Source of the DNA: a virus
Lineage: Duplodnaviria; Heunggongvirae; Uroviricota; Caudoviricetes
IMG/VR virus record: IMGVR_UViG_2740892258_000001
Length of the DNA stretch: 11,188 nucleotides
Direction: 5' to 3' (one strand)
A program made the translations under genes and the position numbers. Within the stretch, counting starts at the first letter, position 1, and each line of letters begins with the position of its first letter. The notes beneath the pieces were generated by a model. It did no database searches and was not told the origin of the DNA. It was given only the letters and a program-made list of their open reading frames with translations. Below are positions 1 through 11,188 of the stretch, one piece after another.

Positions 1-258
1 CCCCTGTCAGGGAGTGAAGAGACAATTTATCTTTACGCCGTCACGTCCTTGATGCTTCCAGGTAGAGAGGGGCTGGAAGCAGGAGAAAAATGAAAGAGCC
101 AGCGGTTATATTTTTGTCATGGCTGACGAGGAATGATGGAAGAAGGCGTTGTATGCCACACAACGCCTCACTGTTCATTTCTTCTTTTTCTCTAGTGGAA
201 CCCGATGAATAAGAGTTGCACTGGTTTCCGATGAGATGGCGATATACTCGGGCAAAGT

Positions 259-441
259 ATGCTGGCAGTTTTCCAACTGGTCAAAAATACCTGCTCTCGT
301 CTGTTGCAATGCCTGCAGCATGCGGCGGCAATGCGCCTTGCTTTTGCTAACCATCTTTCCTTCCTCTATCAGTCGCTGCGTGAACTCATCATGGAATACC
401 AGGTAAATGCGGATGTTATCGGTTTTGGCTACGCAGCATAG
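259..441 (+). CDS. hypothetical small protein (60 aa), uncertain
   Basis: ATG ORF in the phage right-end region. Codon choice looks enterobacterial (frequent CTG/GCG/CGT, no rare Arg/Ile codons), but there is no clear Shine-Dalgarno and no recognised homologue. A longer 117-aa ORF on the opposite strand (175..528) overlaps it and has poorer codon quality. Confidence 0.2.
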   Translation: MLAVFQLVKNTCSRLLQCLQHAAAMRLAFANHLSFLYQSLRELIMEYQVNADVIGFGYAA

Positions 442-804
442 TACAAAACGGACAGGTGCATCCCGGGACGGGGGAGGCGTCACATGTCCCTGTGATGGTT
501 GTTCCGGGTAATGCACTGTGTGGGGCATAAAAATGTCCGATAATTTTACTTTCTACCGCAGTTAGTTGATTCGTTGGTCCTGGTAGCACATTGGGCGAGG
601 ATTTAAATGCCAGGCAACTGAAGGATGATGTTGCAAGGGAGATAGCGAGAATATTTCTGATTTTCATTTGATGATGCCTCTGTGTGAAATGACGGTAAAC
701 GACGCACTTGTGCCGGCACATAATAGCAAGCACCATAATAGATCAGATTCGATTCTTGCTGTAAGTGATAATTATTCTCGTTTTTCGGGTCCTTTCCGGC
801 GATC

Positions 805-828
805 CAACAGGCTACGGGGCGGCGACCT
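805..828. other. cosN, terminase nicking site with 12-nt cohesive end
   Basis: GGGCGGCGACCT at 816..827 is the lambda left cohesive end, preceded by ...GATCCAACAGGCTACG resembling the lambda right terminus. Predicted nicks are between 815/816 on the top strand and 827/828 on the bottom strand. Right-end and left-end sequences are contiguous here. Confidence 0.8.
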
Positions 829-865
829 CGCGGGTTTTCGCTATTTATGAAAATTTTCCGGTTTA

Positions 866-986
866 AGGCGTTTCCGTTCTTCTTCGTCATAACTTAATGT
901 TTTTATTTAAAATACCCTCTGAAAAGAAAGGAAACGACAGGTGCTGAAAGCGAGCTTTTTGGCCTCTGTCGTTTCCTTTCTCTGTT
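866..986. other. cosB, terminase small-subunit binding region (R3, R2, R1 elements with AT-rich IHF-type spacer)
   Basis: Three copies of a CGTTTCC(G/T)TTCT-like element: 869..886 direct (cgtttccgttcttcttcg), 924..940 inverted (reverse complement ctgtcgtttcctttctt), 966..984 direct (ctgtcgtttcctttctctg). An AT-rich stretch at 889..916 lies between R3 and R2. The region sits between cosN and the Nu1 start, as in lambda. Confidence 0.7.
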
Positions 987-1005
987 TTTGTCCGTGGAAT
1001 GAACA

Positions 1006-1525
1006 ATGGAAGTCAACAAAAAGCAGCTGGCTGACATTTTCGGTGCGAGTATCCGTACCATTCAGAACTGGCAGGAACAGGGAATGCCCGTTCTGCGAGG
1101 CGGTGGCAAGGGTAATGAGGTGCTTTATGACTCTGCCGCCGTCATAAAATGGTATGCCGAAAGGGATGCTGAAATTGAGAACGAAAAGCTGCGCCGGGAA
1201 GTTGAAGAACTGCGGCAGGCCAGCGAGACAGATCTCCAGCCAGGGACTATTGAGTACGAACGCCACCGACTTACGCGTGCGCAGGCCGACGCACAGGAGC
1301 TGAAAAATGCCAGAGACTCCGCTGAAGTGGTGGAAACCGCATTCTGTACTTTCGTGCTGTCGCGGATCGCAGGTGAAATTGCCAGTATTCTCGACGGGAT
1401 CCCCCTGTCGGTGCAGCGGCGTTTTCCGGAACTGGAAAACCGACATGTTGATTTCCTGAAACGGGATATCATCAAAGCCATGAACAAAGCAGCCGCGCTG
1501 GATGAACTGATACCGGGGTTGCTGA

Positions 1526-1551
<26 letters not shown>
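1006..1551 (+). CDS. nu1: terminase small subunit (gpNu1-like), 181 aa
   Basis: Translation MEVNKKQLADIFGASIRTIQNWQEQGMPVLRGGGKGNEV... matches lambda gpNu1 along its whole length as I recall it (N-terminal winged-HTH region). It is the first gene downstream of cosB and is the same length as lambda Nu1. Confidence 0.95.
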
Positions 1552-5232
<3,681 letters not shown>

Positions 5233-5252
<20 letters not shown>

Positions 5253-6552
5253 TCTCCCGCATATTGCCAGCATGGCTTTTAATGAGCCGCTGATGCTTGA
5301 ACCCGCCTATGCGCGGGTTTTCTTTTGTGCGCTTGCAGGCCAGCTTGGGATCAGCCGCCTGACAGATGCGGTGTCCGGTGACAGCCTGACTGCCCCGGAG
5401 GCACCCGCGACGCTGGCGTTATCCGGTGATGATGACGGACCACGACAGGCCCGCAGTTATCAGGTCATGAACGGCATCGCCGTGCTGCCGGTGTCCGGCA
5501 CGCTGGTCAGCCGGACGCGGGCGCTGCAGCCGTATTCGGGGATGACCGGTTACAACGGCATTATCGCCCGTCTGCAACAGGCTGCCAGCGACCCGATGGT
5601 GGACGGCATTCTGCTCGATATGGATACGCCAGGCGGGATGGTGGCAGGGGCATTTGACTGCGCTGACATCATCGCCCGTGTGCGTGACATAAAGCCGGTA
5701 TGGGCGCTGGCCAATGACATGAACTGCAGTGCAGGGCAGCTGCTTGCCAGCGCCGCCTCCCGGCGTCTGGTCACGCAGACCGCCCGGACAGGCTCCATCG
5801 GCGTCATGATGGCTCACAGTAATTACGGTGCTGCGCTGGAGAAACAGGGCGTGGAAATCACGCTGATTTACAGCGGCAGCCATAAGGTGGATGGCAACCC
5901 CTACAGCCATCTTCCGGATGACGTCCGGGAGACACTGCAGTCCCGGATGGATGCAACCCGCCGGATGTTTGCGCAGAAGGTGTCGGCATATACCGGCCTG
6001 TCCGTGCAGGCTGTGCTGGATACCGAGGCTGCAGTGTACAGCGGTCAGGAGGCCATTGATGCCGGACTGGCTGATGAACTTGTCAACAGCACCGATGCGA
6101 TCACCGTTATGCGTGATGCACTGGATGCACGTAAATCCCGTCTCTCAGGAGGGCGAATGACCAAAGAGACTCAATCAACAACTGTTTCAGCCACTGCTTC
6201 GCAGGCTGACGTTACTGACGTGGTGCCAGCGACGGAGGGCGAAAACGCCAGCGCGGCGCAGCCGGACGTGAACGCGCAGATCACCGCTGCGGTTGCGGCA
6301 GAAAACAGCCGCATTATGGGGATCCTCAACTGTGAGGAGGCTCACGGACGCGAAGAACAGGCTCGCGTGCTGGCCGAAACCCCCGGTATGACCGTGGAAA
6401 CGGCCCGCCGCATTCTGGCCGCAGCACCACAGAGTGCACAGGCGCGCAGTGACACTGCGCTGGATCGTCTGATGCAGGGGGCACCGGCACCGCTGGCTGC
6501 AGGTAACCCGGCATCTGATGCCGTTAACGATTTGCTGAACACACCAGTGTAA
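5233..6552 (+). CDS. C: head maturation protease / scaffold-processing protein (gpC-like, ClpP/S49-type fold), 439 aa
   Basis: GTG start at 5233 preceded by AGGAGGAG (5221..5228), overlapping the last 20 nt of B. Translation VTAELRNLPHIASMAFNEPLMLEPAYARVFF... matches lambda gpC. The six-frame ORF extends further upstream, but the lambda-equivalent start is this GTG. Confidence 0.9.
5947..6552 (+). CDS. nu3: scaffolding protein (gpNu3-like), translated from an in-frame internal start within C, 201 aa
   Basis: ATG at 5947 is in frame with C (MDATRRMFAQKVSAYTGLSV...) and shares the C stop. Its position corresponds exactly to the lambda Nu3 start when the window is offset by the same 815 nt that maps Nu1, A, W, B and C. 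The nested arrangement is established lambda biology; weak SD. Confidence 0.75.
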   Translation: MDATRRMFAQKVSAYTGLSVQAVLDTEAAVYSGQEAIDAGLADELVNSTDAITVMRDALDARKSRLSGGRMTKETQSTTVSATASQADVTDVVPATEGENASAAQPDVNAQITAAVAAENSRIMGILNCEEAHGREEQARVLAETPGMTVETARRILAAAPQSAQARSDTALDRLMQGAPAPLAAGNPASDAVNDLLNTPV

Positions 6553-6561
6553 GGGATGTTT

Positions 6562-6894
6562 ATGACGAGCAAAGAAACCTTTACCCATTACCAGCCGCTG
6601 GGCAACAGTGACCCGGCTCATACCGCAACCGCGCCTGGCGGATTGAGTGCGAAAGCGCCTGCAATGACCCCGCTGATGCTTGACACCGCCACCCGTAAGC
6701 TGGTTGCGTGGGATGGCACCACCGACGGTGCTGCCGTTGGCATTCTTGCGGTTGCTGCTGACCAGACCAGCACCACACTGACGTTCTACAAGTCCGGCAC
6801 GTTCCGTTATGAGGATGTGCTCTGGCCGGAGGCTGCCAGCGACGAGACGAAAAAACGGACCGCGTTTGCCGGAACGGCAATCAGCATCGTTTAA
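6562..6894 (+). CDS. D: head decoration protein (gpD-like), 110 aa
   Basis: Translation [52 protein letters not shown]...AISIV matches lambda gpD. SD AAGGGA at 6551..6556 is spaced for the ATG at 6562; the upstream in-frame ATG at 6556 is probably not used. Confidence 0.9.
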
Positions 6895-6911
6895 CCTGAC
6901 CCTTCATCACT

Positions 6912-6936
6912 AAAGGCCGCATGTGCGGCTTTTTTT
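6912..6936 (+). terminator. stem-loop plus T-tract in the D-E spacer (intrinsic-terminator-like, possible attenuator)
   Basis: aaaGGCCGC-atgt-GCGGCttttttt: GC-rich 5-bp core stem (extendable through A:U pairs), 4-nt loop, then seven T at 6930..6936, about 14 nt before the E start codon. Confidence 0.4.
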
Positions 6937-6949
6937 ACGGGATTTTTTT

Positions 6950-7975
6950 ATGTCGATGTACACAACCGCCCAGCTGCTGGCGGCAAATGAGCAGAAATTT
7001 AAGTTTGATCCGCTGTTTCTGCGTCTCTTTTTCCGTGAGAGCTATCCCTTCACCACGGAGAAAGTCTATCTCTCACAAATTCCGGGACTGGTAAACATGG
7101 CGCTGTACGTTTCGCCGATTGTTTCCGGTGAGGTTATCCGTTCCCGTGGCGGCTCCACCTCTGAATTTACGCCGGGATATGTCAAGCCGAAGCATGAAGT
7201 GAATCCGCAGATGACCCTGCGTCGCCTGCCGGATGAAGATCCGCAGAATCTGGCGGACCCGGCTTACCGCCGCCGTCGCATCATCATGCAGAACATGCGT
7301 GACGAAGAGCTGGCCATTGCTCAGGTCGAAGAGATGCAGGCCGTTTCTGCCGTGCTTAAGGGCAAATACACCATGACCGGTGAAGCCTTCGATCCGGTTG
7401 AGGTGGATATGGGCCGCAGTGCGGCGAATAACATCACGCAGTCCGGCGGCACGGAGTGGAGCAAGCGTGACAAGTCCACGTATGACCCGACCGACGATAT
7501 CGAAGCCTACGCGCTGAACGCCAGCGGTGTGGTGAATATCATCGTGTTTGATCCGAAAGGCTGGGCGCTGTTCCGTTCCTTCAAAGCCGTCAGGGAGAAG
7601 CTGGATACCCGTCGCGGCTCTCATTCCGAACTGGAGACAGCGGTAAAAGACCTGGGTAAAGCGGTGTCCTATAAGGGGATGTATGGCGATGTGGCCATCG
7701 TCGTGTATTCCGGACAGTACGTGGAAAACGGCGTCAAAAAGAACTTCCTGCCGGACAACACGATGGTGCTGGGTAACACTCATGCACGCGGTCTGCGCAC
7801 CTATGGCTGCATTCAGGATGCGGACGCACAGCGCGAAGGCATTAACGCCTCTGCCCGCTACCCGAAAAACTGGGTGACCACCGGCGATCCGGCGCGTGAG
7901 TTCACCATGATTCAGTCAGCACCGCTGATGCTGCTGGCTGACCCTGATGAGTTCGTGTCCGTACAACTGGCGTAA
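6950..7975 (+). CDS. E: major capsid protein (gpE-like, HK97 fold), 341 aa
   Basis: Translation MSMYTTAQLLAANEQKFKFDPLFLRLFFRESYPFTTEKVYLSQIPGLVNMALYVSPIVSGEV... through ...DPDEFVSVQLA matches lambda gpE over its full length. Same length as lambda E. Confidence 0.95.
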   Translation: MSMYTTAQLLAANEQKFKFDPLFLRLFFRESYPFTTEKVYLSQIPGLVNMALYVSPIVSGEVIRSRGGSTSEFTPGYVKPKHEVNPQMTLRRLPDEDPQNLADPAYRRRRIIMQNMRDEELAIAQVEEMQAVSAVLKGKYTMTGEAFDPVEVDMGRSAANNITQSGGTEWSKRDKSTYDPTDDIEAYALNASGVVNIIVFDPKGWALFRSFKAVREKLDTRRGSHSELETAVKDLGKAVSYKGMYGDVAIVVYSGQYVENGVKKNFLPDNTMVLGNTHARGLRTYGCIQDADAQREGINASARYPKNWVTTGDPAREFTMIQSAPLMLLADPDEFVSVQLA

Positions 7976-7977
7976 TC

Positions 7978-7995
7978 ATGGCCCTTCGGGGCCAT
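7978..7995 (+). other. perfect hairpin with UUCG-type tetraloop in the E-FI spacer
   Basis: ATGGCCC-ttcg-GGGCCAT: 7-bp perfect inverted repeat with a 4-nt ttcg loop, beginning 3 nt after the E stop, followed by a T-rich stretch and the FI SD GGAGGAG (8007..8013). Confidence 0.4.
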
Positions 7996-8016
7996 TGTTT
8001 CTCTGTGGAGGAGTCC

Positions 8017-8412
8017 ATGACGAAAGATGAGCTGATTGCCCGTCTCCGCTCGCTGGGTGAGCAACTGAACCGTGATGTCAGCCTGACGGGGACGAAAGAA
8101 GAACTGGCACTCCGTGTGGCAGAGCTGGAAGAGGAGCTTGATGACACGGATGACGCTGCCGGTCAGGACACATCTGTCAACCCGGAAAATGCGCTGACCG
8201 GGTATGAAAATAACGTGGTATCAGCGCAGCCGGATACCGTGACTGATACGGCTGCTCTGGTCACGGTCGTGGCACTGGTGACGCTGCATACTGATGCACT
8301 TCACGCCACGCGGGATGAACCTGTGGCATTTGTGCTGCCGGGAACGGCGTTTCGTGTCTCTGCCGGTGTGGCAGCCGAAATGACAGAGCGCGGCCTGGCC
8401 AGAATGCAATAA
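8017..8412 (+). CDS. FI: DNA packaging / head-assembly accessory protein (gpFI-like), 131 aa
   Basis: ATG at 8017 with strong SD GGAGGAG. Translation MTKDELIARLRSLGEQLNRDVSLTGTKEELALRVAELEEELDD...AAEMTERGLARMQ matches lambda gpFI at the N and C termini, with a diverged acidic/linker middle. The six-frame ORF starts earlier (7978), inside the hairpin. Confidence 0.9.
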   Translation: MTKDELIARLRSLGEQLNRDVSLTGTKEELALRVAELEEELDDTDDAAGQDTSVNPENALTGYENNVVSAQPDTVTDTAALVTVVALVTLHTDALHATRDEPVAFVLPGTAFRVSAGVAAEMTERGLARMQ

Positions 8413-8423
8413 CGGGAGGCGCT

Positions 8424-8777
8424 GTGGCTGATTTCGATAACCTGTTCGATGCTGCCATTGCCCGCGCCGATGAAACGATACGCGGGTACATGGGAACGTC
8501 AGCCACCATGACATCCGGTGAGCAGTCCGGTGCTGTGATACGTGGTGTTTTTGATGACCCTGAAAATATCAGCTATGCCGGACAGGGCGTGCGCGTTGAA
8601 GGCTCCAGCCCGTCCCTGTTTGTCCGGACTGATGAGGTGCGGCAGCTGCGGCGTGGAGACACGCTGACCATCGGTGAGGAAAATTTCTGGGTAGACCGGG
8701 TTTCGCCGGATGATGGCGGAAGCTGTCATCTCTGGCTTGGGCGTGGCGTGCCGCCTGCCGTTAACCGTCGCCGCTGA
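8424..8777 (+). CDS. FII: head-tail connector protein (gpFII-like), 117 aa
   Basis: GTG start at 8424 with SD GGGAGG (8414..8419). Translation (M)ADFDNLFDAAIARADETIRGYMGTSATMTSGEQSGAVIRGVFDDPENISYAGQGVRVEG... matches lambda gpFII. Confidence 0.9.
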   Translation: MADFDNLFDAAIARADETIRGYMGTSATMTSGEQSGAVIRGVFDDPENISYAGQGVRVEGSSPSLFVRTDEVRQLRRGDTLTIGEENFWVDRVSPDDGGSCHLWLGRGVPPAVNRRR

Positions 8778-8788
8778 AAGGGGGATGT

Positions 8789-9367
8789 ATGGCCATAAAA
8801 GGTCTTGAGCAGGCCGTTGAAAACCTCAGCCGTATCAGCAAAACGGCGGTGCCCGGTGCCGCCGCAATGGCCATTAACCGCGTTGCTTCATCCGCGATAT
8901 CGCAGTCTGCGTCACAGGTTGCTCGTGAGACAAAGGTACGCCGGAAACTGGTAAAGGAAAGGGCCAGGCTGAAAAGGGCCACGGTCAAAAATCCGCAGGC
9001 CAGAATCAAAGTTAACCGGGGGGATTTGCCCGTAATCAAGCTGGGTAATGCGCGGGTTGTCCTGTCCCGCCGCAGGCGTCGTAAAAAGGGGCAGCGTTCA
9101 TCCCTGAAAGGTGGCGGCAGCGTGCTTGTGGTGGGTAACCGTCGTATTCCCGGCGCGTTTATTCAGCAACTGAAAAACGGCCGGTGGCATGTTATGCAGC
9201 GTGTGGCCGGGAAAAACCGTTACCCCATTGATGTGGTGAAAATCCCGATGGCGGTGCCGCTGACCACGGCGTTTAAACAGAATATTGAACGGATACGGCG
9301 TGAACGTCTTCCGAAAGAGCTGGGCTATGCGCTGCAGCATCAACTGAGAATGGTAATAAAGCGATGA
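8789..9367 (+). CDS. Z: tail completion protein (gpZ-like), 192 aa
   Basis: ATG at 8789 with SD AAAGGGGGA upstream. Translation MAIKGLEQAVENLSRISKTAVPGAAAMAINRVASSAISQSASQVARETKVRRKL... matches lambda gpZ. Same length as lambda Z. Confidence 0.9.
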   Translation: MAIKGLEQAVENLSRISKTAVPGAAAMAINRVASSAISQSASQVARETKVRRKLVKERARLKRATVKNPQARIKVNRGDLPVIKLGNARVVLSRRRRRKKGQRSSLKGGGSVLVVGNRRIPGAFIQQLKNGRWHVMQRVAGKNRYPIDVVKIPMAVPLTTAFKQNIERIRRERLPKELGYALQHQLRMVIKR

Positions 9368-9759
9368 AACATACTGAACTCCGTGCAGCCGTACTGGATG
9401 CACTGGAGAAGCATGACACCGGGGCGACGCTTTTTGATGGTCGCCCCGCTGTTTTTGATGAGGAAGATTTTCCGGCAATTGCCGTTTATCTCACCGGCGC
9501 TGAATACACGGGCGAAGAGCTGGACAGCGATACCTGGCAGGCGGAGCTGCATATTGAAGTTTTCCTGCCTGCTCAGGTGCCGGATTCAGAGCTGGATTCG
9601 TGGATGGAGTCCCGGATTTATCCGGTGATGAGCGATATCCCGGCACTGTCAGATTTGATCACCAGTATGGTGGCCAGCGGCTATGACTACCGGCGCGACG
9701 ATGATGCGGGCCTGTGGAGTTCAGCCGATCTGACTTATGTCATTACCTATGAAATGTGA
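9364..9759 (+). CDS. U: tail tube terminator protein (gpU-like), 131 aa
   Basis: ATGA overlap with the Z stop. Translation MKHTELRAAVLDALEKHDTGATLFDGRPAVFDEEDFPAIAVYLTGAEYTGEELD...LTYVITYEM matches lambda gpU. Confidence 0.9.
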   Translation: MKHTELRAAVLDALEKHDTGATLFDGRPAVFDEEDFPAIAVYLTGAEYTGEELDSDTWQAELHIEVFLPAQVPDSELDSWMESRIYPVMSDIPALSDLITSMVASGYDYRRDDDAGLWSSADLTYVITYEM

Positions 9760-9782
9760 GGACGAGAGAGGTATACCGACAA

Positions 9783-10486
9783 ATGGCAGCGACGCACACA
9801 CTCCCTCTGGCGTCACCGGGAATGGCACGCATCTGCCTTTACGGGGATTTGCAACGATTTGGCCGCCGCATCGACCTTCGTGTGAAAACGGGGGCTGAAG
9901 CCATCCGGGCACTGGCCACACAGCTCCCGGCGTTTCGGTGAAAACGGGGGCTGAAGCCATCCGGGCACTGGCCACACAGCTCCCGGCGTTTCGCCAGAAA
10001 CTGAATGAGGGCTGGTATCAGGTGCGCATTTCCGGGCGTGATGCAGGCGAAAATGAATTATCTGCCCGTCTTAATGAACCGCTGGCAAATGGTGCCGTGA
10101 TCCACGTCGTTCCGCGTCTGGCGGGTGCCAAAAGTGGCGGTGTGTTTCAGGCGGTGCTGGGTGCGGCGCTGATTGCGGTGGCATGGTGGAACCCTGTTGG
10201 CTGGCTGGGGGCCGCGGCTGTATCGGGTCTGTATGCAGCAGGGGCCAGTATGATCCTGGGTGGTGTGGCGCAGATGCTGGCACCGAAAGCCAGGACGCCC
10301 ACGGCAGCCAGTACAGATAACGGCAAACAGAACACCTATTTTTCTTCACTGGATAATATGGTTGCCCAGGGCAATGTTCTGCCCGTTCTGTACGGTGAAA
10401 TGCGCGTGGGATCACGTGTGGTATCTCAGGAGATCAGCACAGCAGATGAAGGTGATGGTGGTCAGGTTGTGGTGATTGGTCGCTGA
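9783..10486 (+). pseudogene. I: tail assembly protein I homologue, split by a frameshifting 56-bp tandem duplication
   Basis: ATG at 9783 gives MAATHTLPLASPGMARICLYGDLQRFGRRIDLRVKTGAEAIRALATQLPAFR, then TGA at 9939..9941. The remaining ...QKLNEGWYQVRISGRD...GGQVVVIGR is in another frame (9938..10486). Both termini match lambda gpI as I recall it. Removing one 56-bp repeat copy restores a single ORF of about 215 aa. Confidence 0.8.
9882..9993. repeat. perfect tandem duplication, 2 x 56 bp
   Basis: gtgaaaacgggggctgaagccatccgggcactggccacacagctcccggcgtttcg occurs at 9882..9937 and again, identical, at 9938..9993. Flanking bases differ on both sides, so there are exactly two copies. 56 is not a multiple of 3. 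Confidence 0.95.
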
Positions 10487-10504
10487 TGAAAAACGTTTTA
10501 TGTG

Positions 10505-10530
10505 AAACCGCCTCCGGGCGGTTTTATCGT
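10505..10530 (+). terminator. stem-loop plus T-rich tail in the I-J spacer (intrinsic-terminator-like)
   Basis: AAACCGCC-tccg-GGCGGTTT: perfect 8-bp stem with 4-nt loop, followed by tatcgttt. It lies in the 60-nt spacer between the I stop (10486) and the canonical J start (10547). Confidence 0.3.
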
Positions 10531-10546
10531 TTATGGAGCATGACGA

Positions 10547-11188
10547 ATGGGGATTAAAAAGCGTGCTGCTGAACAGTACGCCGGTGCTGGACAGTGAGGG
10601 GAATACCAATATATCCGGCGTCACGGTGGTGTTCCGGGCAGGTGAGCAGGAGCAGTCACCGCCGGAGGGATTTGAATCCTCCGGCTCCGAGACGGTGCTG
10701 GGTACGGAAGTGAAATATGACACGCCGATCACCCGCACCATTACGTCGGCAAACATCGACCGTCTGCGCTTTACCTTCGGTGTACAGGCACTGGTGGAAA
10801 CCACCTCAAAGGGTGACAGGAATCCGTCGGAAGTCCGTCTGCTGGTTCAGATACAGCGTAATGGTGGCTGGGTGACGGAAAAAGACATCACCATTAAGGG
10901 CAAAACCACCTCGCAGTATCTGGCCTCGGTGGTGGTGGGTAACCTGCCGCCGCGCCCGTTCAATATACGGATGCGCAGGATGACGCCGGACAGCACCACA
11001 GACCAGCTGCAGAACAAAACGCTCTGGTCGTCATAACGCTGACGCTCGACCGTGAAATCACGCTGCCATCCTCCGGTACCACGCTGATAAGTCTGGTTGA
11101 CGGAAGTGGCAATCCGGTCAGCGTGGAGGTTCAGTCCGTCACCGACGGCGTGAAGGTGAAAGTGAGCCGTGTTCCTGACGGCGTTGCC
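10547..11188 (+). pseudogene. J: tail tip / host-specificity protein J homologue, fragmented by a 5' frameshifting lesion and an internal deletion; continues past the window end
   Basis: Canonical start ATG at 10547 with SD GGAG (10535..10538) reads MGIKKRAAEQYAGAGQ then stops at 10595..10597. The J body GLKSVLLNSTPVLDSEGNTNISGVTVVFRAGEQEQ...QLQNKTLWSS is in a different frame (10551..11033) and ends at TAA 11034..11036. From 11039 a third frame encodes LTLDREITLPSSGTTLISLVDGSGNPVSVEVQSVTDGVKVKVSRVPDGVA, which in lambda J lies about 300 residues further on. Confidence 0.8.

Follow-up and report, generated by a model that had tools for sequence, protein, structure and literature searches.

The DNA analysed here (the window, 11,188 nt) carries a lambda-like head region followed by parts of the tail genes K, I and J. 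It is the complete contig CVOH01000018.1 from the Illumina draft GCA_001245225.1 of E. coli K1 A192PP, a strain of ST95, and the CVOH00000000 project has been reported for this strain (PMC5054322). Over its whole length the window is approximately 100% identical to a lambda-like prophage carried by two ST95 strains, E. coli N54 and IHE3034. In its intact form this prophage occupies NZ_CM165885.1 3635642-3653612 in N54 and NC_017628.1 578125-596095 in IHE3034. The prophage of E. coli N54 (locus L003) was used as the reference in an ungapped BLAST alignment. The alignment divided the window into five colinear blocks separated by four junctions, all of which lie in the final 1.4 kb (Table 1). Only the bases at positions 1, 20 and 49 are unlike N54, with zero substitutions across the remaining 11.1 kb. 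The lengths balance, as subtracting the window from the corresponding N54 stretch gives 5,820 - 56 + 116 + 904 = 6,784 nt. The junctions display 0-3 nt of microhomology and zero inversions, as is expected when pieces of sequence are simply abutted.

The first junction follows directly on the head region and, according to the L003 annotation, the gap takes out V, G, T, H, M and L as well as most of K. Its placement is ambiguous by 3 nt (ACG), and a plain abutment between 9764 and 9765 puts both termini on branch points of the k = 57 test described below. The second junction is a perfect tandem duplication, which starts at the GTG of the short I open reading frame (ORF), 1 nt ahead of the K stop codon. 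This short I ORF (182 aa, 9938-10486) matches PF06805 (Lambda_tail_I). The lambda-like long form of I, which spans 215 aa in N54 and starts at 9783 in the window, is frameshifted by the duplication and reduced to 52 aa by a stop codon at 9939-9941.

Downstream of I, the initial annotation had described a 60-nt I-J spacer and a well-placed Shine-Dalgarno (SD) sequence, and both are there: the I stop codon occupies 10484-10486, the J ATG lies at 10547, and GGAG is found ahead of it at 10535-10538. The spacer also contains a hairpin at 10502-10531 with a folding energy of -19.4 kcal/mol (z = -4.4), followed by a U-rich tract. This hairpin was not picked up by a simple terminator scan, but was clear on folding, and in phage Ayreon the spacer carries a terminator annotation. 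It is a conserved peculiarity of these phages that a terminator stands immediately before J, within the late operon.

The third junction lies just inside J. Reading from the native J start yields MGIKKRAAEQYAGAGQ, 16 codons ending at a stop codon in 10595-10597, as had been proposed from the sequence. The J body was likewise correctly placed in another frame: the intact J of N54 starts MGKGSSKGHTPREAKDNLKSTQLLSVIDAISEGPVEGPVDGLKSVLL, in which GLKSV marks residue 41, the residue at which the body begins in the window. Alignment of the I-J region puts window position 10550 at L003 19313 and position 10551 at L003 19430, with a placement ambiguity of 1 nt (G). Of J, only ATGG remains ahead of the junction, and beyond it J picks up with the first base of codon 41. 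An earlier estimate of a loss of 115-120 nt, not a multiple of three, agrees with the 116 nt given by the alignment (3 × 38 + 2). The ATG at 10533 is the sole in-frame start for the J body, as had also been noted, adding MEHDEW before the sequence continues with GLKSVLLNSTPVLD; no SD sequence is located ahead of it. The resulting 167-aa ORF is what gene callers annotate at this junction, and it matches PF24801 (FNIII-A_GpJ) with an E-value of 2.2e-38. Its stop codon, TAA at 11034-11036, is made by the join at the fourth junction. In the window, no single uninterrupted frame leads from the native J start across all domains, for which about 1,130-1,160 aa would be expected, and the deposited J is a J-derived fragment, not an intact member of the gpJ/TipJ family.

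Table 1. Blocks, junctions, reading frames and block termini of the window, aligned to the N54 prophage (L003). For the block termini, the last column gives the related lambdoid loci that place a branch point there at k - 1 = 56.
Feature	Window position	Strand	L003 position	Description
Block 1	1..9764	+	3000-12763	Unbroken lambda-like head region
Genes of block 1				Nu1, A, W, B, C/protease, D, E, FI, FII, Z, U (gene calls and Pfam)
Junction 1	9764..9765		12764-18583	5,820 nt absent compared to N54
Block 2	9765..9937	+	18584-18756	173 nt, 100% identity; end of K and start of long-form I
Junction 2	9882..9993	+	18701-18756	Perfect 56-nt tandem duplication (9882-9937 = 9938-9993)
Block 3	9938..10550	+	18701-19313	613 nt, 100% identity; 182-aa I ORF, 60-nt I-J spacer with hairpin, SD, ATGG of J (10547-10550)
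Junction 3	10550..10551		19314-19429	116 nt absent (J codons 2-40)
16-codon ORF from native J start	10547..10597	+		MGIKKRAAEQYAGAGQ*
167-aa ORF	10533..11036	+		MEHDEW, J residues 41-201 and stop; spans junction 3
Block 4	10551..11035	+	19430-19914	485 nt, 100% identity; J codons 41 to about 202
Junction 4	11035..11036		19915-20818	904 nt of J absent; no microhomology
Block 5	11036..11188	+	20819-20971	153 nt, 100% identity; internal J piece up to the contig end
End of block 1			12763	11 of 21 loci with the terminal 56-mer diverge at 12764
Start of block 2			18584	52 of 54 loci sharing 18584-18639 differ at 18640 (start + 56)
End of block 2 / start of block 3			18756 / 18701	24 of 24 loci sharing 18701-18756 differ at 18757
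End of block 3			19313	6 loci share 19258-19313 and differ at 19257 (end - 56)
Start of block 4			19430	6 loci share 19430-19485 and differ at 19429
End of block 4			19914	10 loci share 19859-19914 and differ at 19858 (end - 56)
Start of block 5			20819	47 loci share 20819-20874 and differ at 20875 (start + 56)

The positions of the block termini were compared with the boundaries that nodes of a de Bruijn graph would have. A terminus was counted as a branch point if a further prophage copy contains the same terminal 56-mer but carries a different base immediately next to it, on either side. The comparison covered 130 related lambdoid loci, of which 120 were IMG/VR loci sharing a 32-mer with the window and 10 carried the same U gene; these are stand-ins from other genomes, not the paralogous prophages of A192PP itself. 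Exact k-mers were scanned for every k - 1 from 30 to 99 at the eight internal block termini. With k - 1 = 56, all eight termini fell on branch points (supporting loci: 52, 24, 6 and 47 at the block starts, and 11, 24, 6 and 10 at the block ends), compared to at most three of the eight for any other value in that range. Five of the eight are k-dependent, with the variant located exactly 56 nt from the terminus. The background is low: requiring at least 5 loci, 4.3% of the positions in the tail region and 1.5% of those in the U/V region satisfy the same rule. The resulting chance expectation, a rough product of rates in which the termini are treated as independent, is approximately 1e-9, allowing for the four possible placements at the first junction and the two at the third.

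The duplication displays the same length. The duplicated 56-mer ends one base before the site at which all 24 loci sharing it differ, and the duplication is the stretch of k - 1 bases by which two neighbouring k = 57 contigs overlap, present once from each. Since its 56 nt correspond to k - 1, k is 57, an odd number; Velvet needs an odd k. The missing 116 nt at the start of J lie inside L003 19258-19485, where other prophages have 56-mers in common with L003. The only terminus without an exact fit to the k = 57 rule is the contig end at 11188, which lies 1 nt past the branch point at L003 20970 (21 loci differ at 20971). No single stand-in locus gave the required breaks without extra breaks inside the retained blocks, and either the true paralogs must differ from the stand-ins at the extra break sites, or bubble-merging in Velvet must have erased breaks caused by isolated SNPs. 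One locus (L083) was considered as a paralogous prophage of ST95 and discarded, as it belongs to E. coli 042.

The three mismatches to N54 at positions 1, 20 and 49 all fall inside the first 56 nt of the contig, again k - 1. A mosaic boundary or the edge of a repeat, located upstream of Nu1/cos in A192PP, may account for them.

The junction at the start of J appears to be confined to this single record. Neither the 5,426 complete E. coli genomes nor the 50,697 phage records searched with a 50-nt probe across it (10527-10576) contained a match, and an exact 37-nt junction pattern was not found in IMG/VR or in the GTDB representative genomes. The exact 167-aa protein is known from one contig only, CVOH01000018.1, and a lookup of the exact ORF in the Logan and ENA re-assemblies did not return it. 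The surrounding sequence, on the other hand, is present in several copies per genome, measured on ST95 relatives and not on A192PP: the I-J junction region has four matching places in N54 and five in IHE3034, and the K-I-J stretch has 6-7 matching places per closely related ST95 genome. With four to seven copies of the region, a graph built from short reads must branch there. The protein cluster of the 167-aa ORF has 3,045 members, and most of the members listed are partial N-terminal J fragments of 87-214 aa on contigs of a few hundred bases. Such fragments on tiny contigs show that E. coli draft assemblies systematically break at the 5' end of J.

One member of this cluster, P0003, has a different profile. 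It is 183 aa long, is labelled complete and is found on 15 contigs, Logan included, the longest of which has 199 kb, and it may represent a real truncated J elsewhere.

The last gene of the head region also proved to be widespread, as the assembly collection holds an identical 131-aa U protein (window 9364-9759) in 23,558 of its indexed blocks. In ten of the loci (L005-L014) the U protein is found behind two head-gene sets, which differ in the protease/scaffold protein (439 aa versus 501 aa) and in D, E and FI, and both of which carry the same FII-Z-U-V-G-T. A mosaic boundary within the head-tail joining region is clear in these loci. One of them, L009 (GCA_042850905.1, DAXQGR010000029.1), has the exact U gene alone; Nu1 is located about 1.5 kb upstream of it, and downstream of U there are fragments of L, M and the tape-measure gene in inverted orientation. 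Either the prophage at this locus is truly scrambled, or the contig is a further case of faulty assembly.

These results argue that the 116-nt gap is very probably an assembly artefact arising from concatenated contigs, and not a property of the phage. The initial annotation was right that J carries an out-of-frame gap, of 116 nt by the alignment, just inside the gene relative to an intact J. Its reading of the gap as a deletion in the phage genome was not borne out, given the fit to the node-boundary rule and the unique junction. For the parent strain A192, the same laboratory used MiSeq 2x151 sequencing with Nextera XT, obtained an assembly of 627 contigs from Velvet and VelvetOptimiser, ordered these contigs on IHE3034, and stated that short reads limited the detection of structural variants (PMC5115809). 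Taken together with the sequence signature, this sister-strain description suggests that Velvet and k = 57 were also used for A192PP.

The most likely course of events is the following. Strains of the ST95 lineage carry several lambdoid prophages with common stretches of K, I and J, and in a k = 57 graph of the Velvet type the tail region would split into short nodes at the 56-mers common to other copies. After the 9.76-kb head contig of block 1, nodes of 173, 613, 485 and 153 nt would have been abutted in the order of the reference prophage, with no spacer and with their overlaps unmerged. Where true graph neighbours were abutted, the 56-nt overlap would be written twice and appear as a tandem duplication, and where one or more connecting repeat nodes were omitted, apparent deletions of 5,820, 116 and 904 nt would result. 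The abutment of blocks 3 and 4 would in this way have produced the out-of-frame J start and the 167-aa ORF with its MEHDEW leader.

The joining step itself would have taken place after assembly, probably as a reference-guided ordering on IHE3034. A jump of 5.8 kb is beyond paired-end links, and a reference-guided ordering step is therefore required. Velvet's own scaffolder was also considered as the joiner. In Velvet scaffolding, at least 10 Ns are inserted and the first k - 1 bases of each appended node are dropped. The block coordinates fit neither orientation of this model, and Ns would be expected at the joins, so the scaffolder was rejected. If contigs were indeed concatenated, the A192PP data should hold no reads spanning the junctions, and the real A192PP prophage most likely carries an unbroken 5' end of J, as do its approximately 100% identical relatives.

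The foremost alternative is that the changes are real, i.e. that V to K and two stretches of J (116 nt and 904 nt) were truly lost from the A192PP prophage and 56 nt were duplicated in it; under this reading, J would be a frameshifted pseudogene and the element a tail-less cryptic prophage. The deposited sequence does show the junctions without Ns, and microhomology of 0-3 nt would fit illegitimate recombination. Defective lambdoid prophages with truncated tail genes are, moreover, common in E. coli. Natural breakpoints, however, have no reason to fall exactly 56 nt from variant sites or immediately beside them, as all eight termini do here and only at k - 1 = 56, and four structural changes next to zero substitutions past the first 49 bases form an implausible mutation spectrum. 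The anomalies are also bunched where a draft contig ends within multi-copy sequence, and the junction was absent from every other genome or re-assembly searched. No structural variants among A192, A192P and A192PP were reported by the same laboratory, which pointed out that short reads are limited in this respect (PMC5115809), and this too counts against true decay of the prophage. Both the losses and the pseudogene status of J that would follow from them are accordingly regarded as distinctly unlikely.

Such a history would, if true, leave A192PP with a head-only lambdoid remnant in which Nu1 to U are intact, V to K are gone, I is short and J is crippled. An element of this kind could package DNA in capsids and borrow the tails of co-resident prophages, somewhat like capsid-forming satellites. 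The agreement with the k = 57 branch points would then have to be an accident, and the existence of such a remnant is considered very unlikely.

Still less probable is a single complex, replication-based event in an ancestor of the strain, in which serial template switching, of the type seen in microhomology-mediated break-induced replication, gave rise to all four junctions. Clustered colinear junctions, deletions accompanied by a small duplication and 0-3 nt of microhomology are what such an event would leave behind, and mixed junction patterns of this sort have been reported for template switching, mostly in eukaryotes. This explanation leaves the k = 57 coincidence standing, together with a duplication whose length equals k - 1 and which ends exactly at a variant site, and no independent occurrence was seen in the complete E. 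coli genomes or the phage records. It is therefore held to be extremely unlikely, and taken jointly, true decay and template switching remain unlikely.

The two remaining explanations concern the start of J only. A base-calling or homopolymer error in the run of four Gs at 10549-10552, which the initial annotation had suggested checking and which does sit at the frame change, has a negligible probability: the alignment refutes it, as the difference amounts to 116 nt and not one base, and the run is itself the product of joining ATGG to GGATT, so a homopolymer miscount does not explain it. Equally negligible is a natural short J isoform starting from the ATG at 10533 (MEHDEW...), for although the 167-aa frame is open and is called as a gene, it occurs on one contig in the protein collection, none of the relatives examined, out of thousands of matching genomes, has such a start and the junction probe revealed none, no SD sequence precedes 10533, and the stop codon is made by the fourth junction.

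With assembly from concatenated contigs as the preferred explanation, the altered start of J is almost certainly not a real feature and adds nothing new to the biology of J. The consequences concern the public record. The mis-joins in CVOH01000018.1 yield a spurious 167-aa 'J', a truncated long I and a seemingly tail-less prophage, and the entry merits an error flag. Transposon-insertion data from the same laboratory are mapped onto its A192PP reference assembly (PMC5847654). More generally, where phage regions are repeated, calls of pseudogenes or of a 'defective prophage' based on draft contigs need to be backed by reads, and the branch-point test with related sequences offers a way of exposing concatenated de Bruijn nodes without reads.

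Compared to known systems, the J region of the window resembles that of lambda gpJ (TipJ) as found in N54, IHE3034 and phage Ayreon, where J follows I after the same 60-nt spacer, hairpin, SD sequence and ATG, and the J pieces are 100% identical to N54 and 98.5% identical to Ayreon at the DNA level. The intact J of N54, however, has 1,159 aa and seven Pfam matches, among them the receptor-binding domain at the C-terminus, whereas J in the window lacks codons 2-40 and a further 904 nt and breaks off with the contig at about 1.66 kb of the 3.48-kb reference gene. There is also a superficial likeness to defective lambdoid prophages, in that the head genes are intact, tail genes are missing and J is in fragments. 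The cryptic prophages of E. coli K-12 are genuinely defective lambdoid prophages with truncated tail genes. Real remnants nevertheless display substitutions, breakpoints that are independent of k, and recurrence in related strains, none of which is seen in the window. De Bruijn contigs are usually joined through Ns or left as separate contigs, in contrast to the seamless joins within this submitted contig. In other respects the window is like a set of concatenated de Bruijn contigs, with a repeat of k - 1 nucleotides, termini on the branch points of one single k, colinear pieces and a contig end in multi-copy sequence.
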